In this document: piece after piece, positions 525 through 6,566 of the stretch
Position numbering within the stretch: the stretch's first letter is position 1
Layout of the letters: each line of letters opens with the position of its first letter
NCBI GenBank assembly: GCA_003650545.1
Contig: QMQO01000012.1
Coordinates: 1 to 35,646 of the forward strand
DNA length: 35,646 nt
From: Candidatus Woesearchaeota archaeon
Lineage (GTDB): Archaea > Nanobdellota > Nanobdellia > Woesearchaeales > B72-G16
Direction: 5' to 3'
Notes under the pieces: model-generated
What the model saw: only the letters and a program-made list of their open reading frames with translations
Databases searched by the model: none
What the model was told of the DNA's origin: nothing
Program-made: the position numbers and the translations under genes

Positions 525-977
525 ATGGCAAGAATGCACTCAAGAGCAAAAGGTAAATCCAGTAGCAAGAAGCCTGTTGAAAGTAAGGCTTCATGGGTAC
601 GCTATAAACCAAAAGAGATGGAAATCATAATCCAACGTTTGGGTAAGGAAGGGAAGAGTGCTGCCCAGATTGGTCTGATCATGAGAGATGTCTATGGCAT
701 TCCAGATATCAAGAAGTTAACAGGAAAAAGGATATCCAAGATTTTGTCTGATAAAGGCTTACTACCTGAGTTACCTGATGACCTGCTTGCATTGATAAGA
801 AAATCTGTAAAAATCAGGAAACATCTAGAGGCAAACCATAAAGATCAACCTTCTATACGCGGGCTAACATTGACTGAATCAAAAATATTTAGATTGGTGA
901 AGTATTATAAAAGGTCTGGGAGACTGCCTTCTGATTGGAAGTATGATCCTAAACAGGTTAAGATTTTAGCTGAATAA
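525..977 (+). CDS. rps15: 30S ribosomal protein S15 (uS15, archaeal S15/S13e type)
   Basis: MARMHSRAKGKSSS N-terminus; LPDDLLALIRK...HKD...LTLTESKIFRLVKYYK...LP.DWKY signature. Confidence 0.98.
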   Translation: MARMHSRAKGKSSSKKPVESKASWVRYKPKEMEIIIQRLGKEGKSAAQIGLIMRDVYGIPDIKKLTGKRISKILSDKGLLPELPDDLLALIRKSVKIRKHLEANHKDQPSIRGLTLTESKIFRLVKYYKRSGRLPSDWKYDPKQVKILAE

Positions 978-1062: not shown

Positions 1063-2454
1063 ATGGGGTTTGATGGATTTATTGAAAGAATTAATGAATT
1101 AGCAAAAGAGTTTAAAAAAATAGATAAAAATGAGAATATCAGGATAGTCAGCCATCTTGATGCAGATGGCATTAGTGCTGCTGCATTGCTAATAAAACTC
1201 TTTGATTTTGAAAAAATCAGATTTACACTAAACATCATAGAGCAGCTTGATAAACGGTTGATAAATGAAATTAAAAAAGAGAAATTTAATGTTATTTTCT
1301 TCACAGATCTTGGATCGGGTAACCTGGATTTAATTCAGGAGGGTTTAGCTGGAAAAAAGGTTTTTGTGATAGATCATCATGAGATTTCAGGCAGAGACGA
1401 TGGGTTATTACATGTAAATCCACATCTGTTTGGCTTAGATGGTAACAAGAGTATTTCTGGAGCAGGTGTTGTTTATTTTTTTGCAAAAGCTGTTAATGAG
1501 AAGATTAAAGATTTTGCTCACATTGCGGTGATTGGTGCTATTGGAGATGTTCAAGAAGACCAAGGCTTTGAAGGAATGAATAGTAAAATCTTGACTGACG
1601 CTGTTGAAAGCGGCAAACTCAAAATTGAACGTGGACTAAGGTTGTACGGACTAGATAGTAGACCAATACATAAAGTGCTTGAGTATAGCTCTGACATAAA
1701 AATACCTGGTGTTTCTGGAAGCGAGAGTGCGTCTGTTGCATTCTTACAGAGTATTGGAATAAAGATTCGTAATGAAAAAGAATTTAGACGATATTCAGAC
1801 CTAAGTACAAATGAAAAGAAAAGACTGGCAGCAGCAATCATCCTGAAAAGAGCTGATCAAGATAACCCCGAAGATATCTTTGGCAATATTTATGTGCTGC
1901 CTGATGAAACTGAAGGACCACTAAAAAATGCAAAAGAGTTTGCAACCTTGCTTAATAGTTGCGGTAGACTGAACCGTGCTTCTTTTGGAATTGGGGCTTT
2001 GCTGAATGATAAAAAACTTAAAAAAAAAGCCCTAGACAGCTTAAAAGACTATCGCAGAGAGCTTGTTAATGCACTTAACTGGTATCGTGATAACAGGAAA
2101 AATGTTATCACAAATGGAAAGTATATGATAATCAATGCAGAAGATAATGTGATGCACACCATAATTGGTACGCTTGGTAGCATGATCTCCAAAAGTGGTG
2201 AACATCCTGAGGGATTCTTGATATTAACATTAGCACAGTCCATGTATGGTTATACCAAAGCTTCTTTAAGAGTCGCAGGACAAAGCCAACACGATTTGCG
2301 TGAAATAATAAAAGAGATTGCTACTAAAGTAGATGGGGATTATGGTGGACATATGCAAGCTGCTGGCGCCTTGTTCGAAACTGAACGCGAAAAAGAATTT
2401 ATTAAAGAAGCTATGATTGTTCTTGATAAAAAAACAATGGAAGAAATTGTTTAA
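1063..2454 (+). CDS. DHH/DHHA1 RecJ-like nuclease, probable GAN (Cdc45/RecJ homologue)
   Basis: Motifs SHLDADG, DLGSG, DHH, GAIGD and C-terminal GGHMQAAG. Position directly after rps15 is the conserved archaeal context for this family. Confidence 0.88.
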   Translation: MGFDGFIERINELAKEFKKIDKNENIRIVSHLDADGISAAALLIKLFDFEKIRFTLNIIEQLDKRLINEIKKEKFNVIFFTDLGSGNLDLIQEGLAGKKVFVIDHHEISGRDDGLLHVNPHLFGLDGNKSISGAGVVYFFAKAVNEKIKDFAHIAVIGAIGDVQEDQGFEGMNSKILTDAVESGKLKIERGLRLYGLDSRPIHKVLEYSSDIKIPGVSGSESASVAFLQSIGIKIRNEKEFRRYSDLSTNEKKRLAAAIILKRADQDNPEDIFGNIYVLPDETEGPLKNAKEFATLLNSCGRLNRASFGIGALLNDKKLKKKALDSLKDYRRELVNALNWYRDNRKNVITNGKYMIINAEDNVMHTIIGTLGSMISKSGEHPEGFLILTLAQSMYGYTKASLRVAGQSQHDLREIIKEIATKVDGDYGGHMQAAGALFETEREKEFIKEAMIVLDKKTMEEIV

Positions 2455-2530
2455 TCCATTGTTTAATGTTTAATTGTTTCATTGTTTAATTGTTTAATTC
2501 TGATTTTTATTTAATATTGATTGTTTAATT
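2446..2530 (+). repeat. Degenerate tandem repeat of ATTGTTTAA beginning at the RecJ-like gene stop codon
   Basis: About 6-7 imperfect copies; the first contains the TAA stop at 2452-2454. Confidence 0.8.
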
Positions 2531-2613
2531 CTATTTTAATTTAATAAATTTTTATTCCTTTTTAATTTTTATAATTTTAATTTTATATACAAATTAGTAT
2601 ATTAATAGAAAAA

Positions 2614-2621
2614 TTTATATA
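2614..2621 (+). promoter_or_regulatory. Putative BRE/TATA promoter upstream of the hairpin cluster
   Basis: GAAAAA followed by TTTATATA; predicts a transcription start near 2645. Confidence 0.55.
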
Positions 2622-2673
2622 TTAGTTTAACTTTCCTATTTTATAGTATACAGAAGTAATAAATTCAACAAAT

Positions 2674-2970
2674 AGATCCTTAAAAGAATTAAGGATCTGG
2701 CACACTAATAAACTTATAGCATTATGATAGCTGGCTCTCCACTACATAATTCTCAACCCTTCCCTCACAACCTCTCTATGGAGAGCCACATCATATTCGT
2801 GATCATTGCTTTATTGCAGATTTTTTCACTCAACTATAAAAGCAATAAAGTGGTGATAAAGCTAGCTAAGCCCCCGAGCTTAGCATTATATACAGACATC
2901 ACAAGGCTGCATCTCTGAAGATGCAGCCTATCACCATCACAGGGGTCCGAGTGATTAGTAAAACGGTGAT
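2674..2970 (+). ncRNA. Candidate structured RNA or long 5' leader with six consecutive hairpins
   Basis: Stems: 2674-2683/2689-2698 (10 bp); 2732-2741/2779-2788 (10 bp); 2802-2817/2842-2857 (16 bp, 3 G-U); 2865-2871/2878-2884 (7 bp); 2904-2914/2919-2929 (11 bp); 2930-2935/2965-2970 enclosing 2936-2940/2951-2955. The G-U pairs favour the + strand. Confidence 0.6.
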
Positions 2971-2973
2971 GAC

Positions 2974-3108
2974 ATGAACACAAAATTTAATGATTTTCAT
3001 AATCATTTGCTTGAAGTGATAAGTACCACTAATTCATTTTTTGTGAATGTGGTGATTTTGTTAGTTTTAAGTGTCATTATGTTTCTTTCTAAAAAGGGGT
3101 TGACTTAG
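2974..3108 (+). CDS. Unannotated 44-aa small protein with one predicted transmembrane helix
   Basis: GGTGAT RBS at 2965-2970 and ATG at 2974. Translation MNTKFNDFHNHLLEVISTTNSFFVNVVILLVLSVIMFLSKKGLT. The stop lies 1 nt before the next ATG. Confidence 0.55.
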   Translation: MNTKFNDFHNHLLEVISTTNSFFVNVVILLVLSVIMFLSKKGLT

Positions 3109-3109
3109 A

Positions 3110-3871
3110 ATGAGTTCTAAAGACTATGAAATATCCAAACAAAAGTCATCCCGGATATTTGTAACGATTGATCAAGAAAAAGAACAGCTATTGGCATATG
3201 CCAAGAAATTGATGCGTGAGCCAAAATTTGAGATTTTAGTCTGGACTGAAGAAGCAAAAAAAAAGGTGTTGCATTATTTCGAGAGAATACTAGATGATCC
3301 GTGTGTTAAATATGTTGCGTGGCATCTAAGAAAACCTAAACATAAGAGTGTGTTGTACCATTCGATAGATGTTGCACTCATAGGTATTAGTTATGCTGTT
3401 GCAAACAAGCATGACGAAGCCACATGTCTGCTCTATGGAAAAGGTGGATTTATACACGATAATGGCAAGAGATTTATTCCAGTTGATATTATAAATAAGC
3501 CTGAAAAATTGAATGATGAAGAATTTAGTGTGATGAGACTACATGCTCCCTTTGGTTATGATGATCTAAGTGGTGCAGGATTTGAAGACGATGTTGCTAT
3601 AGCATGCACATCAGAACATCATCCAACTTATCCTCACATTTCAGGGGATGTTAGTGAACTTGGAAAATTAGTTGCTGTGTTTGACAGTTTTGGCGCATTA
3701 ACAGAGTATAGACCATATCCACGTTATTTCAAAAAATTGATTGTTGAAGGTAGCTTCAAGCCAAACGAAGCACTAGAAGTTCTGGTTGAAGATATGAAGG
3801 AAGGTAAACTTGATGCCAAAATCGTTCAAAGATTTGTTTCTATAGGAGAGATAAGTAGGTATATTCATTAA
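3110..3871 (+). CDS. HD-GYP-like metal-dependent phosphohydrolase
   Basis: HSIDVA, IHDNGK, IP.DIINKPEKL.DEEF.VMRLH, EHH..YP and D..GALT.YRPY match the HD-GYP motif order; the GYP loop is shortened. Confidence 0.85.
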   Translation: MSSKDYEISKQKSSRIFVTIDQEKEQLLAYAKKLMREPKFEILVWTEEAKKKVLHYFERILDDPCVKYVAWHLRKPKHKSVLYHSIDVALIGISYAVANKHDEATCLLYGKGGFIHDNGKRFIPVDIINKPEKLNDEEFSVMRLHAPFGYDDLSGAGFEDDVAIACTSEHHPTYPHISGDVSELGKLVAVFDSFGALTEYRPYPRYFKKLIVEGSFKPNEALEVLVEDMKEGKLDAKIVQRFVSIGEISRYIH

Positions 3872-3924
3872 GTATATTCATTAAGTATATTCATTAAGTA
3901 TGTTCATTAGGTAATGTTCATTAA
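3856..3924 (+). repeat. 13-nt tandem repeat (TAAGTATATTCAT) spanning the HD-GYP stop codon
   Basis: About five copies that decay progressively downstream. Confidence 0.9.
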
Positions 3925-4046
3925 CTTTTGTTAATCTACTAACTTTCATAAATTTTCATTAATTGAAGACTAATTAACTCTCCAAAAGCATATACTTGCA
4001 AAAAGCATATAAATAGCTTTTTTTATTCTTTTATAGAGGTAGATAG

Positions 4047-6566
4047 ATGCTAACAGATAAACAACAAAAAAAAGTGTTTAAGGTTAAAGCAAGTAAGCAG
4101 CCAGAGAATTATTACGCTGTGGAAATTCTGAAACAAGAAGGTTTTAGACGTAAAAAATGTAAATGTGGTACTTATTATTGGACTACAACTGATGCTAAAA
4201 CTTGCGATGATCCTGCTTGTTCTGGAGGATTTCGCTTTATCAATCAAAGCCCTGCTAAAAATAAGATGGATTATATCGAAGTGTGGAAGAGGTTTGCAGA
4301 GTTATTTAAAAAATGGGGATATACACCAATAGAGAGGTACCCTGTTGCAGCTCGTTGGAGGGATGATACAGATTTTGTGCAGGCTAGTATCTACGATTTT
4401 CAGCCTTATGTTGTGAATGGTGTTGTAAAACCACCTGCCAATCCTTTGGTTGTACCGCAGTTCTGTTTGAGATTTAATGATATCGATAATGTAGGCATTA
4501 CAGGTGCTCATTACACTGGCTTTGTGATGATTGGTCAGCATACATTTGTTCCACCAGAAGAATGGCAACAGGAAAAATACTTTACCGATATACACAACTG
4601 GTTAAAGCAAGGAATCGGTCTGTCAAATGAAGAGATAACTTATCACGAAGATGCATGGGCTGGTGGTGGTAATTTTGGGCCTTCGATGGAATTTTATTCC
4701 CGCGGTCTTGAGCTAGGTAATCAGGTTTACATGATGTTTCAGCAGACACCTCGCGGTAATAAAGAATTAAAGCTGAAAGTTTTGGATATGGGAATGGGTC
4801 ACGAAAGGAACGCATGGTTCACCCTTGGAAAAGCAACAAGCTATGAGACCACATTTCCAACAGTTATTGCAAAGCTTATGAAAATAACCGATCTAAAAGT
4901 AAATAAAGATGTGATGGAAAAGTTTTTACCTTACTCATCTTACTTGAACATCGATGAAGTAGATAATATAGAAAAGACTTGGAAATTCGTTGCAGATAAG
5001 ATAAACATTGAGGTTGACGAACTTAAAAAAACAATACTGCCATTACAAGGATTATTCTCTGTTGCAGAACACACTAGATCGTTGCTTGTTGCTATAAACG
5101 ATTGTGTGTTACCTAGCAACGTCGGTGGCGGATATAACCTAAGGGTTCTCCTAAGAAGAGCTTTAGGCTTCATAGATAAGTACAAATGGCAGATCAATTT
5201 AGAAGATGTAGCTAGATGGCATGCTTCATATCTAAAACCATTGTTTCCCGAACTGACGAAGAATCTTGATAATGTTGCAAGGATATTAGAAGTTGAAAGA
5301 AAAAAATATATCACAACAAAGGAGAAATCCAGAAAGATAGTCCAGACCCTTATAAAGAAAAAGATTAAAATTTCAGATGAAAAACTTATAGAACTTTACG
5401 ATAGCAATGGAATCAACCCTGAAATGGTTGCAGAAGAAGCTAGAGCAGAAGGGAAGGTAATTTCTATACCTGAAGATTTCTACGCGAGAGTTGCAAAAAA
5501 ACATGAAAAAAAAGAGATAGTTAGAGTTAGAGAAGAAAGATTTGACGTTAAGGATTTACCAGAAACTAAACTGATGTTTTATGAAGATGACAGAGTTAGA
5601 GAATTTGACACAACTGTTTTGGATGTCAAAGATAACGCTGTTATACTTGACCTTACATTTTTTTATCCTACTTCAGGAGGCCAAGATCACGATATAGGTA
5701 CTATAAATGGTAGGAATGTTGTGGATGTTATAAAACAAGACGGAGTTGTTGTTCATGTTCTTGATAAAAAACCAAACTTTAAGAAAGGGGACAAGGTGAC
5801 ATGTTATATAGATGATGAACATAGAAAACAGTTAACACAACATCATACTGCTACGCATATTGTTAATGCTGCAGCTAGAAAAGTTCTAGGCAATCACATT
5901 AACCAAGCAGGAGCTAAGAAAACTATAGAAAAAGCACATCTTGATATAACCCATTACCAGTCGATAAGCGAAGATGAATTAAAAAAGATAGAGACTGAAG
6001 CAAATAAAATTGTAAAAAGAGGAATTGAAGTTAATAAGTATTTTTTAGCTCGAGACGAAGCTGAAAGAAGGTTTGGCATGAACATCTATCAAGGTGGAGC
6101 TGTCCCAGGAGAAAAAATAAGAATTGTTGAGATTCCAGAAGTGGATGTTGAAGCGTGTGGGGGCACTCATGTAAATAATACTAAGGATGTTGGAGAGATA
6201 AAATTGCTAAAGAGCACTAAGATTCAAGATGGTGTGGTCAGACTGTTTTTCACTGCGGGTAGAGCAGCATCTGAAAAAGAAGAGGAAGAAAGTAAGATTC
6301 TTGACGAAGTTGCAGCTAATTTAGGTGTTAATGCTAAACAGGTTCCTGACAGAGTTGAAGAATTGTTTACAAAATGGAAGAAAGCTAAGAAAGCTATTAA
6401 GAAAGGGAAAAAGCTAGAAGAAAGTTTAGAGCTTAGTTCCACTAAGGTGTATGAGGGCGATGCTTTGGCCAAAGCATGTGAGATACTTCGTGTTCAGCCA
6501 GAGCATTTATTGAATACTGTTAAGAGATTCTTAAAAGAATTGGATGAATTTAAAAAGAAGTTGTAA
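4047..6566 (+). CDS. alaS: Alanine--tRNA ligase (archaeal type)
   Basis: N-terminal Cys cluster, ARWRDD..FVQASIYDFQP, QFCLRFNDIDNVG.TG.H, editing-domain HHTATH and ACGGTH motifs. Confidence 0.97.
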   Translation: MLTDKQQKKVFKVKASKQPENYYAVEILKQEGFRRKKCKCGTYYWTTTDAKTCDDPACSGGFRFINQSPAKNKMDYIEVWKRFAELFKKWGYTPIERYPVAARWRDDTDFVQASIYDFQPYVVNGVVKPPANPLVVPQFCLRFNDIDNVGITGAHYTGFVMIGQHTFVPPEEWQQEKYFTDIHNWLKQGIGLSNEEITYHEDAWAGGGNFGPSMEFYSRGLELGNQVYMMFQQTPRGNKELKLKVLDMGMGHERNAWFTLGKATSYETTFPTVIAKLMKITDLKVNKDVMEKFLPYSSYLNIDEVDNIEKTWKFVADKINIEVDELKKTILPLQGLFSVAEHTRSLLVAINDCVLPSNVGGGYNLRVLLRRALGFIDKYKWQINLEDVARWHASYLKPLFPELTKNLDNVARILEVERKKYITTKEKSRKIVQTLIKKKIKISDEKLIELYDSNGINPEMVAEEARAEGKVISIPEDFYARVAKKHEKKEIVRVREERFDVKDLPETKLMFYEDDRVREFDTTVLDVKDNAVILDLTFFYPTSGGQDHDIGTINGRNVVDVIKQDGVVVHVLDKKPNFKKGDKVTCYIDDEHRKQLTQHHTATHIVNAAARKVLGNHINQAGAKKTIEKAHLDITHYQSISEDELKKIETEANKIVKRGIEVNKYFLARDEAERRFGMNIYQGGAVPGEKIRIVEIPEVDVEACGGTHVNNTKDVGEIKLLKSTKIQDGVVRLFFTAGRAASEKEEEESKILDEVAANLGVNAKQVPDRVEELFTKWKKAKKAIKKGKKLEESLELSSTKVYEGDALAKACEILRVQPEHLLNTVKRFLKELDEFKKKL

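Follow-up and report, generated by a model that had tools for sequence, protein, structure and literature searches.

What does a row of hairpins do in the intergenic DNA ahead of an HD-GYP-type phosphohydrolase gene of an uncultured DPANN archaeon? The question is raised by contig QMQO01000012.1 of Candidatus Woesearchaeota archaeon (assembly GCA_003650545.1), where a first-pass annotation, made from the sequence alone, had noticed a cluster of six stems of about 300 nucleotides (nt) behind a promoter and had proposed a novel noncoding RNA or riboregulatory leader. The window analysed here is the whole stretch of 35,646 nt; it is AT-rich archaeal DNA, and the genes around the element all lie on the + strand. 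Comparative sequence analysis indicates that the element forms a genuine and conserved RNA structure on the + strand and that it is a good candidate for a regulatory leader, and we hold with moderate confidence that positions 2645-2973 are a new cis-acting, structured 5' leader that gates translation of a two-gene operon. Riboswitch-like and leader RNAs known from archaea are, to our knowledge, few, and full-text searches of a limited literature collection found nothing linking Woesearchaeota and riboswitches and, for HD-GYP, archaea and riboswitch together, only assays using the bacterial Vc2 riboswitch.

All six stems are where the first-pass annotation had placed them, as a listing of the pairs by script confirmed (H1 to H6 in Table 1). 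Folded as + strand RNA, positions 2640-2975 have a minimum free energy (MFE) of -95.1 kcal/mol, compared with -63.4 +/- 5.5 kcal/mol for 100 dinucleotide shuffles (z = -5.73). No shuffled sequence folded as well, which answers the check on folding energy that had been proposed with the annotation; the opposite (-) strand gave z = -3.67. Two of the hairpins carry large loops. The inner stem of H2 (GGCUCUCC/GGAGAGCC) closes a C-rich loop of 37 nt (2742-2778) that has no G at all, as had been noticed from the sequence, and that contains the block CCCUUCCCUCA (2757-2767). The loop of H3 contains the 18-nt block UUUCACUCAACUAUAAAA (2824-2841). Both blocks are important for what follows.

The genome that holds the window (G000; 133 contigs, 1.64 Mb, 85% complete) was compared with one representative each from other families of a single large order, the collection holding no relative from its own family; none of the loci described individually below comes from a genome flagged as unpublished. 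These comparisons gave one full-length homologue, in genome G002, which belongs to a different family of the same Nanoarchaeota order. The homologous leader occupies approximately L010:1391-1771 and has the same five hairpins, H1 to H5, and when folded alone it gives the same hairpin series, with z = -5.29 on the + strand and -3.03 on the - strand. The two elements were aligned helix by helix with a model-based alignment and an anchored script alignment, MAFFT having misaligned them. Among 60 aligned pair positions, 53 are paired in both sequences: 28 are unchanged, 8 are changed on one side by way of G-U pairs, and 17 are changed on both sides. The other 7 are broken in one of the two sequences, mostly at helix ends. 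In H1, the G002 counterpart has two G-U pairs and one change on both sides; in H2, the inner stem is identical and the outer stem has three changes on both sides; in H3 (alignment A5), 14 of the 16 pairs are kept, with 6 changed on both sides and 4 on one; the H4 counterpart has one change on both sides and one G-U pair; and in H5, 5 of the 11 aligned pair positions are changed on both sides with pairing kept. Between the window and G002, H3 and H5 have hardly any stem sequence in common. When H2 and H3 were aligned by a tool, 96% of the cells were paired, compared with 33-61% when the partners were slid by 1-3 columns, and there were 7 double changes, compared with 0-3 in the slid controls.

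The unpaired parts show identity instead of compensation. The window and G002 are identical over UUUCACUCAACUAUAAAA in the H3 loop (18/18), over CCCUUCCCUCA in the H2 loop (11/11), and over CCAUCACA just after H5. The helices of the two sequences together contain 10 G-U oppositions and 1 A-C, against the 1:1 expected of a palindrome in DNA (binomial p ~0.006), and this excess points to a structure that acts as RNA, on the + strand. The first-pass annotation had reached the same view from the G-U pairs of stem 3, and the homologue and compensatory changes that it had suggested seeking bear it out. Another of its proposals fared less well. It had suggested that the CCCC loop of stem 4 and the GGGG loop of stem 6, both containing CCGAG, could kiss; CCGAG is indeed present in the H4 loop and at 2947-2951, but the kiss is not conserved, because the corresponding position in G002 has no GGGG and a scan for complementary segments kept in both sequences gave H1 to H5 only. 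A closing helix of GUAAU with AUUAY, read by eye, was dropped when the same scan did not recover it.

The last hairpin, H6, is predicted to act on the ribosome site. In the window, the anti-Shine-Dalgarno (anti-SD) sequence AUCACCAUCAC (2930-2940) includes the conserved CCAUCACA (2934-2941), and its partners are GUGAU (2951-2955) and the Shine-Dalgarno (SD) sequence GGUGAU (2965-2970). This SD sequence lies 3 nt ahead of the ATG at 2974 and in the MFE fold is paired with 2930-2935. In the MFE fold of G002, AUCACA (L010:1696-1701) is paired with UGUGAU (1762-1767), 4 nt ahead of the ATG. Thus, the two independent in silico folds agree in covering the SD sequence of the small open reading frame (ORF) with the conserved CCAUCACA region, and the earlier suggestion that stem 6 hides the GGTGAT ribosome-binding site holds as a prediction. 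Consistent with use of such sites by this organism, of the 24 GGTGAT words in the 30 nt ahead of long ORFs in G000, 20 begin at -16 to -6, and GGTGA occurs 50 times at -16 to -6 of long ORFs versus 8 times at -30 to -20. The 3' strand of H3 contains a second GGUGAU (2852-2857), and in G002 the linker between H3 and H4 contains GAGGUGGAUC. In our reading, these sequences may be competing partners of the anti-SD sequence, giving a three-part arrangement.

The genes behind the RNA also recur. The small ORF of the window, which has no Pfam match, is followed after 1 nt by a gene whose 253-aa product matches Pfam HD at 28.1 bits (cut-off 22) and HD_5 at 21.6 bits, which is under the cut-off of 27.2; its best relative of solved structure is 4mcw (E 1.1e-11), followed by 5z7c, a 3'3'-cGAMP (cyclic GMP-AMP) phosphodiesterase. 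In G002, the leader is followed by a 33-aa ORF (L010:1772-1873) whose stop lies 2 nt ahead of the ATG of an HD-GYP gene; there, the protein matches HD and HD_5 above cut-off and its HHE..DG.GYP motif is intact. The two HD proteins are only 25% identical over 133 aa and differ in length. The outer neighbours differ as well: RecJ upstream and alanyl-tRNA synthetase downstream in the window, and a NUDIX gene upstream and a beta-helix protein gene downstream in G002. The shared order within differing surroundings suggests that the conserved unit consists of the promoter, the RNA, the small ORF, and the HD-GYP gene. Within this unit, judging from the single comparison, the RNA loops are far better kept than the HD protein. 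Relatives of the window's HD protein are distant only (at most 35% identity) and were found in 17 of 401 genomes of the order (E <=1e-8); model R1 found no match at 16 of those loci. G000 carries a second and much stronger HD-GYP (HD_5) gene at C60:4556-5053 (147 bits, in a 539-aa frame).

These features suggest how the leader might work. The strong consensus archaeal promoter would drive the leader, the 44-aa hydrophobic peptide, and the HD-GYP-type phosphodiesterase as one transcript, in which H1 to H5 would fold independently, with H2 and H3 exposing long unpaired loops of fixed sequence. By default, the SD sequence GGUGAU would be hidden by H6 through the CCAUCACA sequence, which resembles the tail of 16S rRNA. 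A factor that recognizes the conserved loops or H2, whether a protein, an RNA, or a small molecule, could then shift the pairing, so that the GGUGAU of H3 would compete for the same anti-SD sequence and the ribosome site would open. The HD-GYP gene would follow by translational coupling, because the stop of the small ORF and the start of the HD-GYP gene are 1-2 nt apart.

The promoter itself was placed correctly by the first-pass annotation: the TATA box TTTATATA stands behind an A-rich run resembling a transcription factor B recognition element (BRE). The string 2604-2624 was found again by BLAST at many places in related genomes, at 90-100% identity, which fits a consensus promoter. In G000, TTTAWATA peaks 20-60 nt ahead of the ATGs of long ORFs and the box of the element lies 360 nt ahead, and a leader of ~330 nt would therefore be exceptional for this organism. 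A script scan found no TTTAWATA between 2622 and 2974, and in neither leader, that of the window or that of G002, are the ORFs preceded by another TATA box or by a conserved T run. A second TTTATATA box, with no A-rich run before it, lies at 2582-2589, 32 nt upstream of the presumed promoter box.

Table 1. Features of the window around the hairpin element
Feature	Position	Strand	Description
Ribosomal protein S15 gene	525-977	+	
Archaeal RecJ-family nuclease gene	1063-2454	+	NCBIfam RecJ_archaeal, 411 bits
Promoter	2608-2621	+	A-rich BRE-like run, then TATA box TTTATATA (2614-2621)
Putative 5' leader RNA	2645-2973	+	~330 nt; start near 2645 placed from the TATA position
H1	2673-2683/2689-2699	+	11 bp, 5-nt loop AAGAA; G002 counterpart L010:1441-1463
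H2	2724-2794	+	Inner stem 2732-2741/2779-2788, 10 bp; outer stem 2724-2728/2790-2794, 5 bp
H3	2802-2817/2842-2857	+	16 bp, three G-U pairs, 24-nt loop
H4	2865-2871/2878-2884	+	7 bp, loop CCCCGA; G002 counterpart L010:1625-1647
H5	2904-2914/2919-2929	+	11 bp, loop CUGA; G002 counterpart L010:1667-1688
H6, predicted expression-platform hairpin	2930-2970	+	2930-2935/2965-2970 and 2936-2940/2951-2955 (MFE)
Small ORF	2974-3108	+	44 aa, hydrophobic C-terminal half; TAG 1 nt ahead of next ATG
HD-GYP-related phosphohydrolase gene	3110-3871	+	253 aa; H, HD, H, HH, D motifs kept; GYP loop shortened
Alanyl-tRNA synthetase gene	4047-6566	+	

The element matches no RNA family of Rfam. Rfam 15 gave no match at the gathering score anywhere in the window; at E <=10, the only matches in 2400-3200 were snoR25 (E = 3) and rliE (E = 7.6), both at chance level, and at E <=0.1 there was none at the G002 locus or at the five ftsZ-leader loci described below. 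The first-pass annotation had found no motif of signal recognition particle (SRP) RNA, RNase P RNA, or the cyclic di-GMP (c-di-GMP)-I riboswitch. The first two identities were rejected here too, since the models do not match in the window and the genuine RNAs lie elsewhere in G000 (SRP RNA, RF01857, at C6:34236-34509, 152.4 bits; RNase P RNA, RF00373, at C14:22145-22436, 124.1 bits), and the third gave no Rfam match. We would class the element as a new family among structured regulatory leader RNAs, one that has no Rfam family; its link to ftsZ leaders through H2 was unexpected.

The searches returned full-length copies from two genomes only. Within G000, BLAST of 2600-2980 returned the self match and otherwise nothing longer than 33 nt, and models R1 and R3 gave one match each and no further copy. 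BLAST against 40 relatives mostly matched the promoter part, and only G002 matched the body. Among the 401 order genomes, the exact 18-nt H3 loop occurs in G000 and G002 only; with up to 2 mismatches, it matched in 65 (a tally that includes the genomes flagged unpublished, G121 and G374), and a reversed control also matched many. The 1-mismatch matches in G309 and G385 were unrelated on reading, and R1 scored none as real among 49 loci taken from that search, which are part of the 2-mismatch matches. Model R1 run on 151 order genomes likewise retrieved G000 and G002 only, a 21.9-bit match in G149 being set aside for want of a comparable hairpin series. The exact 18-mer was found at 50 loci in metagenome contigs and 34 in genome contigs, of which R1 kept two: L079, which is the contig of the window itself, and L140, whose score equals that of the G002 locus; none of the 12 + 1 loci in viral contigs was real. 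Model R2 found nothing in 80 further order genomes, where a match in G189 covers only the unstructured part of the model, and in a 151-genome phylum sample it gave one match to H2 alone, in G454, and nothing else. No third full-length copy was therefore obtained across the order, phylum-sample, metagenome, genome, and viral searches.

The weak R2 match in G454 (L206; 26.6 bits) nevertheless opened a wider view of H2. This hairpin has the stem GGCUCUCC/GGAGGGCC with one U-G pair and a G-free, C-rich loop, and it sits between a TATA box and the start of ftsZ. The stem pattern with a loop of 25-55 nt occurs in 10 of 351 order genomes, compared with 2 for the reversed control, and the matches in G282 (L207), G055 (L209), G339 (L212), and G118 (L213) have C-rich, G-poor loops; all four are on the sense strand, with the ATG of ftsZ 32-100 nt downstream. 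Counting G454, five genomes from three other families thus have an H2-type hairpin next to ftsZ, its stem being GGCUCUCC/GGAG(A/G)GCC and its loop 33-50 nt long. The six remaining pattern matches (in G170, G350, G160, G336, and a second G118 site) lie inside frames of 341-685 aa in GC-rich loci and were taken as chance. The seven H2-type hairpins, including those of the window and G002, align with an invariant stem and the loop pattern UUCU.A ... CCCC.C. Model R3, made from these seven, gave exactly one strong match (57-71 bits) each in G000, G002, G454, G055, and G118; all five genomes are in its training set, so the matches themselves were expected and the absence of a second copy is what is informative. 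On four complete genomes of other families, R3 gave weak matches only.

Two further loci look like diverged members of the H2 group with compensatory stems, an assignment that we make tentatively: G085 (L228; GGCUCCCU/AGGGAGCC, 24.2 bits), where the hairpin lies ahead of a 431-aa unknown ORF, and G016 (L229; GGUGCCCC/GGGGCACC, 18.2 bits), where it lies 20 nt before the ATG of a signal-peptide protein. R3 matches in G157 and G025 are doubtful. At all nine loci, from seven families and with these two tentative cases counted, the hairpin is on the same strand as the next gene and 20-230 nt before its start codon. In G118 and G016, an SD sequence lies between hairpin and ATG and leaves no room for another promoter; there, the hairpin must belong to the 5' untranslated region. 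H2 is part of a wider family of hairpins that apparently occur once per genome, and at least the H2 module is not specific to HD-GYP genes, because it also precedes ftsZ and other genes. The proposal that the element is the leader of a peptide and HD-GYP operon thus stands in part: the gene order recurs in the one full-length homologue, and H2 alone is found elsewhere. No H2-type hairpin is present in the organisms' own ftsZ leaders, either in G002 or in the 172 nt between the contig end and the G000 gene (C15:173-1240). The G000 ftsZ leader (C15:1-172) carries AAUCAUCACA just ahead of a GGGGU ribosome site, and this sequence resembles the CAUCACA elements of the window leader.

We favour a cis-acting leader, with a trans-acting small RNA that masks ribosome-binding sites as the next candidate and a ligand-sensing riboswitch as a subset possibility. 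Several observations weigh against the favoured explanation. The covariation comes from one sequence pair, two full-length copies being known in all, and in G002 the match of SD and anti-SD sequences is only 6 bp. The sole run of at least five T in the window leader, T6 at 2821-2826, lies inside the H3 loop and could stop part of the transcripts (TCTTT stands at the matching place in G002). The scan of both sequences gave H1 to H5 with no conserved multi-helix junction or pseudoknot. In four of the five ftsZ-adjacent loci (G055, G118, G339, and G282), a T-rich tract directly follows the hairpin and could be the archaeal terminator of a separate small RNA. Finally, the H2-type hairpin is single copy in the five genomes with strong matches and stands before differing genes (ftsZ, HD-GYP, the 431-aa unknown, and a secreted protein), a pattern no less expected of an independent RNA gene than of a cis element tied to one gene. 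A small RNA of this independent kind would act in trans, its C-rich, G-free, anti-SD-like loops masking the ribosome sites of several mRNAs, and its placement would be incidental or would add a cis effect; we take this possibility seriously while thinking it rather unlikely. It would draw on the same T-rich tracts, on the element's own consensus promoter, on the single strong R3 match in each of the five genomes (where only the missing extra copies are informative), and on the change of downstream gene between families. There is also archaeal precedent in Methanosarcina mazei sRNA154 and sRNA41, which mask ribosome sites (PMC5867862). Of 808 ribosome-site regions of G000, 5% reach a pairing energy of -16 kcal/mol or better with the H2 loop, and the best value is -24.9 kcal/mol; however, the ribosome site of the HD gene ranks 73rd of the 808 and that of the small ORF 388th, and G000 has about as many 10-mers complementary to the conserved blocks as chance would give. 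The loop is, by this modelling, generically anti-SD-like, with no specific target identified in cis or in trans, and the duplex that it could form at the ribosome site of the HD gene (9 bp, -13.9 kcal/mol) was dropped as specific evidence for its rank and for having no counterpart in G002. Several observations tell against a separate RNA: the hairpin is co-oriented with and near the next start codon at all nine loci, in G118 and G016 it is too near the SD sequence and ATG for a separate mRNA start, and neither the window nor G002 has a T run of at least five or any other terminator signal after H2 to H5.

The remaining explanations concern whether the element acts as DNA, as a coding sequence, or as a ligand-binding RNA. 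Perfect or near-perfect inverted-repeat arms in AT-rich intergenic DNA, flanked by short tandem repeats, might suggest a miniature inverted-repeat transposable element (MITE) or a remnant of a transposon, inverted repeats to which a transcription factor binds, or an element of a replication origin, and the invariant H2 stem sequence is what a protein-binding site would look like. Such a DNA-level feature is highly improbable given the compensatory stem changes with fixed loops, the 10:1 excess of G-U over A-C on the + strand, the variation of H2-type loops between 33 and 50 nt, and the C-rich strand being always the sense strand of the next gene; the single copy in G000 excludes a MITE or transposon end, which the first-pass annotation had named as one finding that would overturn its view. 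Equally far-fetched, in our estimate, is a small protein encoded by the 64-aa ORF at 2724-2918, which spans H2 to H5 and has as its analogue a 57-aa ORF over H3 to H5 in G002, with SLNYK in both across the conserved loop block. A 1-nt difference in length between the conserved blocks breaks any common frame, the G002 frame that reads the H2 loop block ends before H3, the peptides are unrelated except at residues that the conserved nucleotides dictate, neither ATG is preceded by an SD sequence, and the substitutions track base pairing and not codons. A new riboswitch class, in which the loops and linkers would form a pocket for c-di-GMP, pGpG, or cGAMP and set the SD-occluding hairpin for feedback on the HD-GYP enzyme, appears doubtful. 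Both full-length copies precede HD-GYP-type genes that are otherwise 25% identical, the usual pattern for a riboswitch, and the conserved structure with covariation (in two sequences) and the predicted SD-occluding platform are what such a switch would have. Genes of c-di-GMP turnover are also common in the order: there are four GGDEF genes in G000 (on C9, C107, and C34) and three in G002 (on C6 and C4), and GGDEF genes occur in 182 of 401 sampled order genomes (E <=1e-10), including complete genomes in a single contig; this tally includes the genomes flagged unpublished, G205, G337, G374, G182, G244, G209, G207, and G303. DAC-domain genes were not found in G000 or G002, both of which are incomplete. 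It is therefore plausible, as far as gene content goes, that the HD-GYP operon sits in a c-di-GMP network. The RNA, however, is far rarer than GGDEF genes, being present in 2 genomes; no model of c-di-GMP-I, c-di-GMP-II, or any other Rfam riboswitch matches it; it is a string of simple hairpins in which no junction or pseudoknot was found to be conserved; and H2 alone stands before ftsZ in five genomes and before unrelated genes in the two tentative cases. A c-di-GMP-I match in G000 itself (C38:8950-9045, - strand, L191; 60 bits against a gathering score of 35), which lies ahead of a frame of over 1100 aa, was set aside as a probable bacterial contaminant because of its bacterial-type promoter (TTGACA-17-TATACT) and the G+C content of C38 (0.416, versus 0.33 for the contig of the window).

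Several known systems share some features with the element. The c-di-GMP-I (RF01051) and c-di-GMP-II (RF01786) riboswitches are likewise structured leaders before genes for c-di-GMP turnover enzymes, with a platform that occludes the ribosome site. The element differs in being ~4 times longer, in forming a row of hairpins and not a compact junction, and in being archaeal, and neither model matches at the gathering score in the window or at E <=10 in 2400-3200. RNA thermometers and the mRNA leaders of type I toxins are long, structured, SD-sequestering leaders. In leaders of this kind, too, an upstream anti-SD sequence pairs with the SD sequence of a short hydrophobic ORF; coupling of the small ORF to an enzyme gene is atypical of type I toxins, and unlike an RNA thermometer the element has two large invariant loops that suggest recognition of a partner and not simple melting. 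RsaE and RoxS are bacterial small RNAs with C-rich loops directed against ribosome-binding sites. Like these and like the M. mazei RNAs, the element has its own promoter and unpaired, C-rich, G-free loops complementary to purine-rich ribosome sites. It differs in having no terminator after it in the window or G002 and in being always co-oriented near the next gene, and it has no sequence relationship to them. The CsrB and RsmZ sponge RNAs are likewise hairpin series that present loop motifs; the loops of the element are long, differ from one another, and have no GGA motifs.

A conserved RNA before an HD-GYP operon would give a concrete handle on control of this pathway in an uncultured lineage, and the sharing of H2 with ftsZ leaders adds to it. 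The element is testable as RNA, whether as H2 alone (~70 nt) or as the whole leader (~330 nt). More speculatively, it could be the first member of a new class of archaeal riboregulators. Its invariant H2 and H3 loops would respond to a nucleotide second messenger from the c-di-GMP pathway or to a dedicated RNA-binding regulator, and the H2 hairpin would gate translation of ftsZ in sister families. We regard this broader idea as unlikely; if it were true, second-messenger signalling and cell division in DPANN archaea would be linked by a shared RNA module.

The flanks of the module contain repeats of their own. Five exact copies of ATTGTTTAAT, spaced 8-31 nt apart, lie at 2446-2529, in the gap that separates the stop codon of RecJ from the element's promoter, and nothing resembling them was noticed in G002. 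On the other side, a 13-nt unit (GTATATTCATTAA and variants) is repeated in tandem about five times at approximately 3863-3925, right after the stop of the HD gene and before the promoter region of the alanyl-tRNA synthetase gene.

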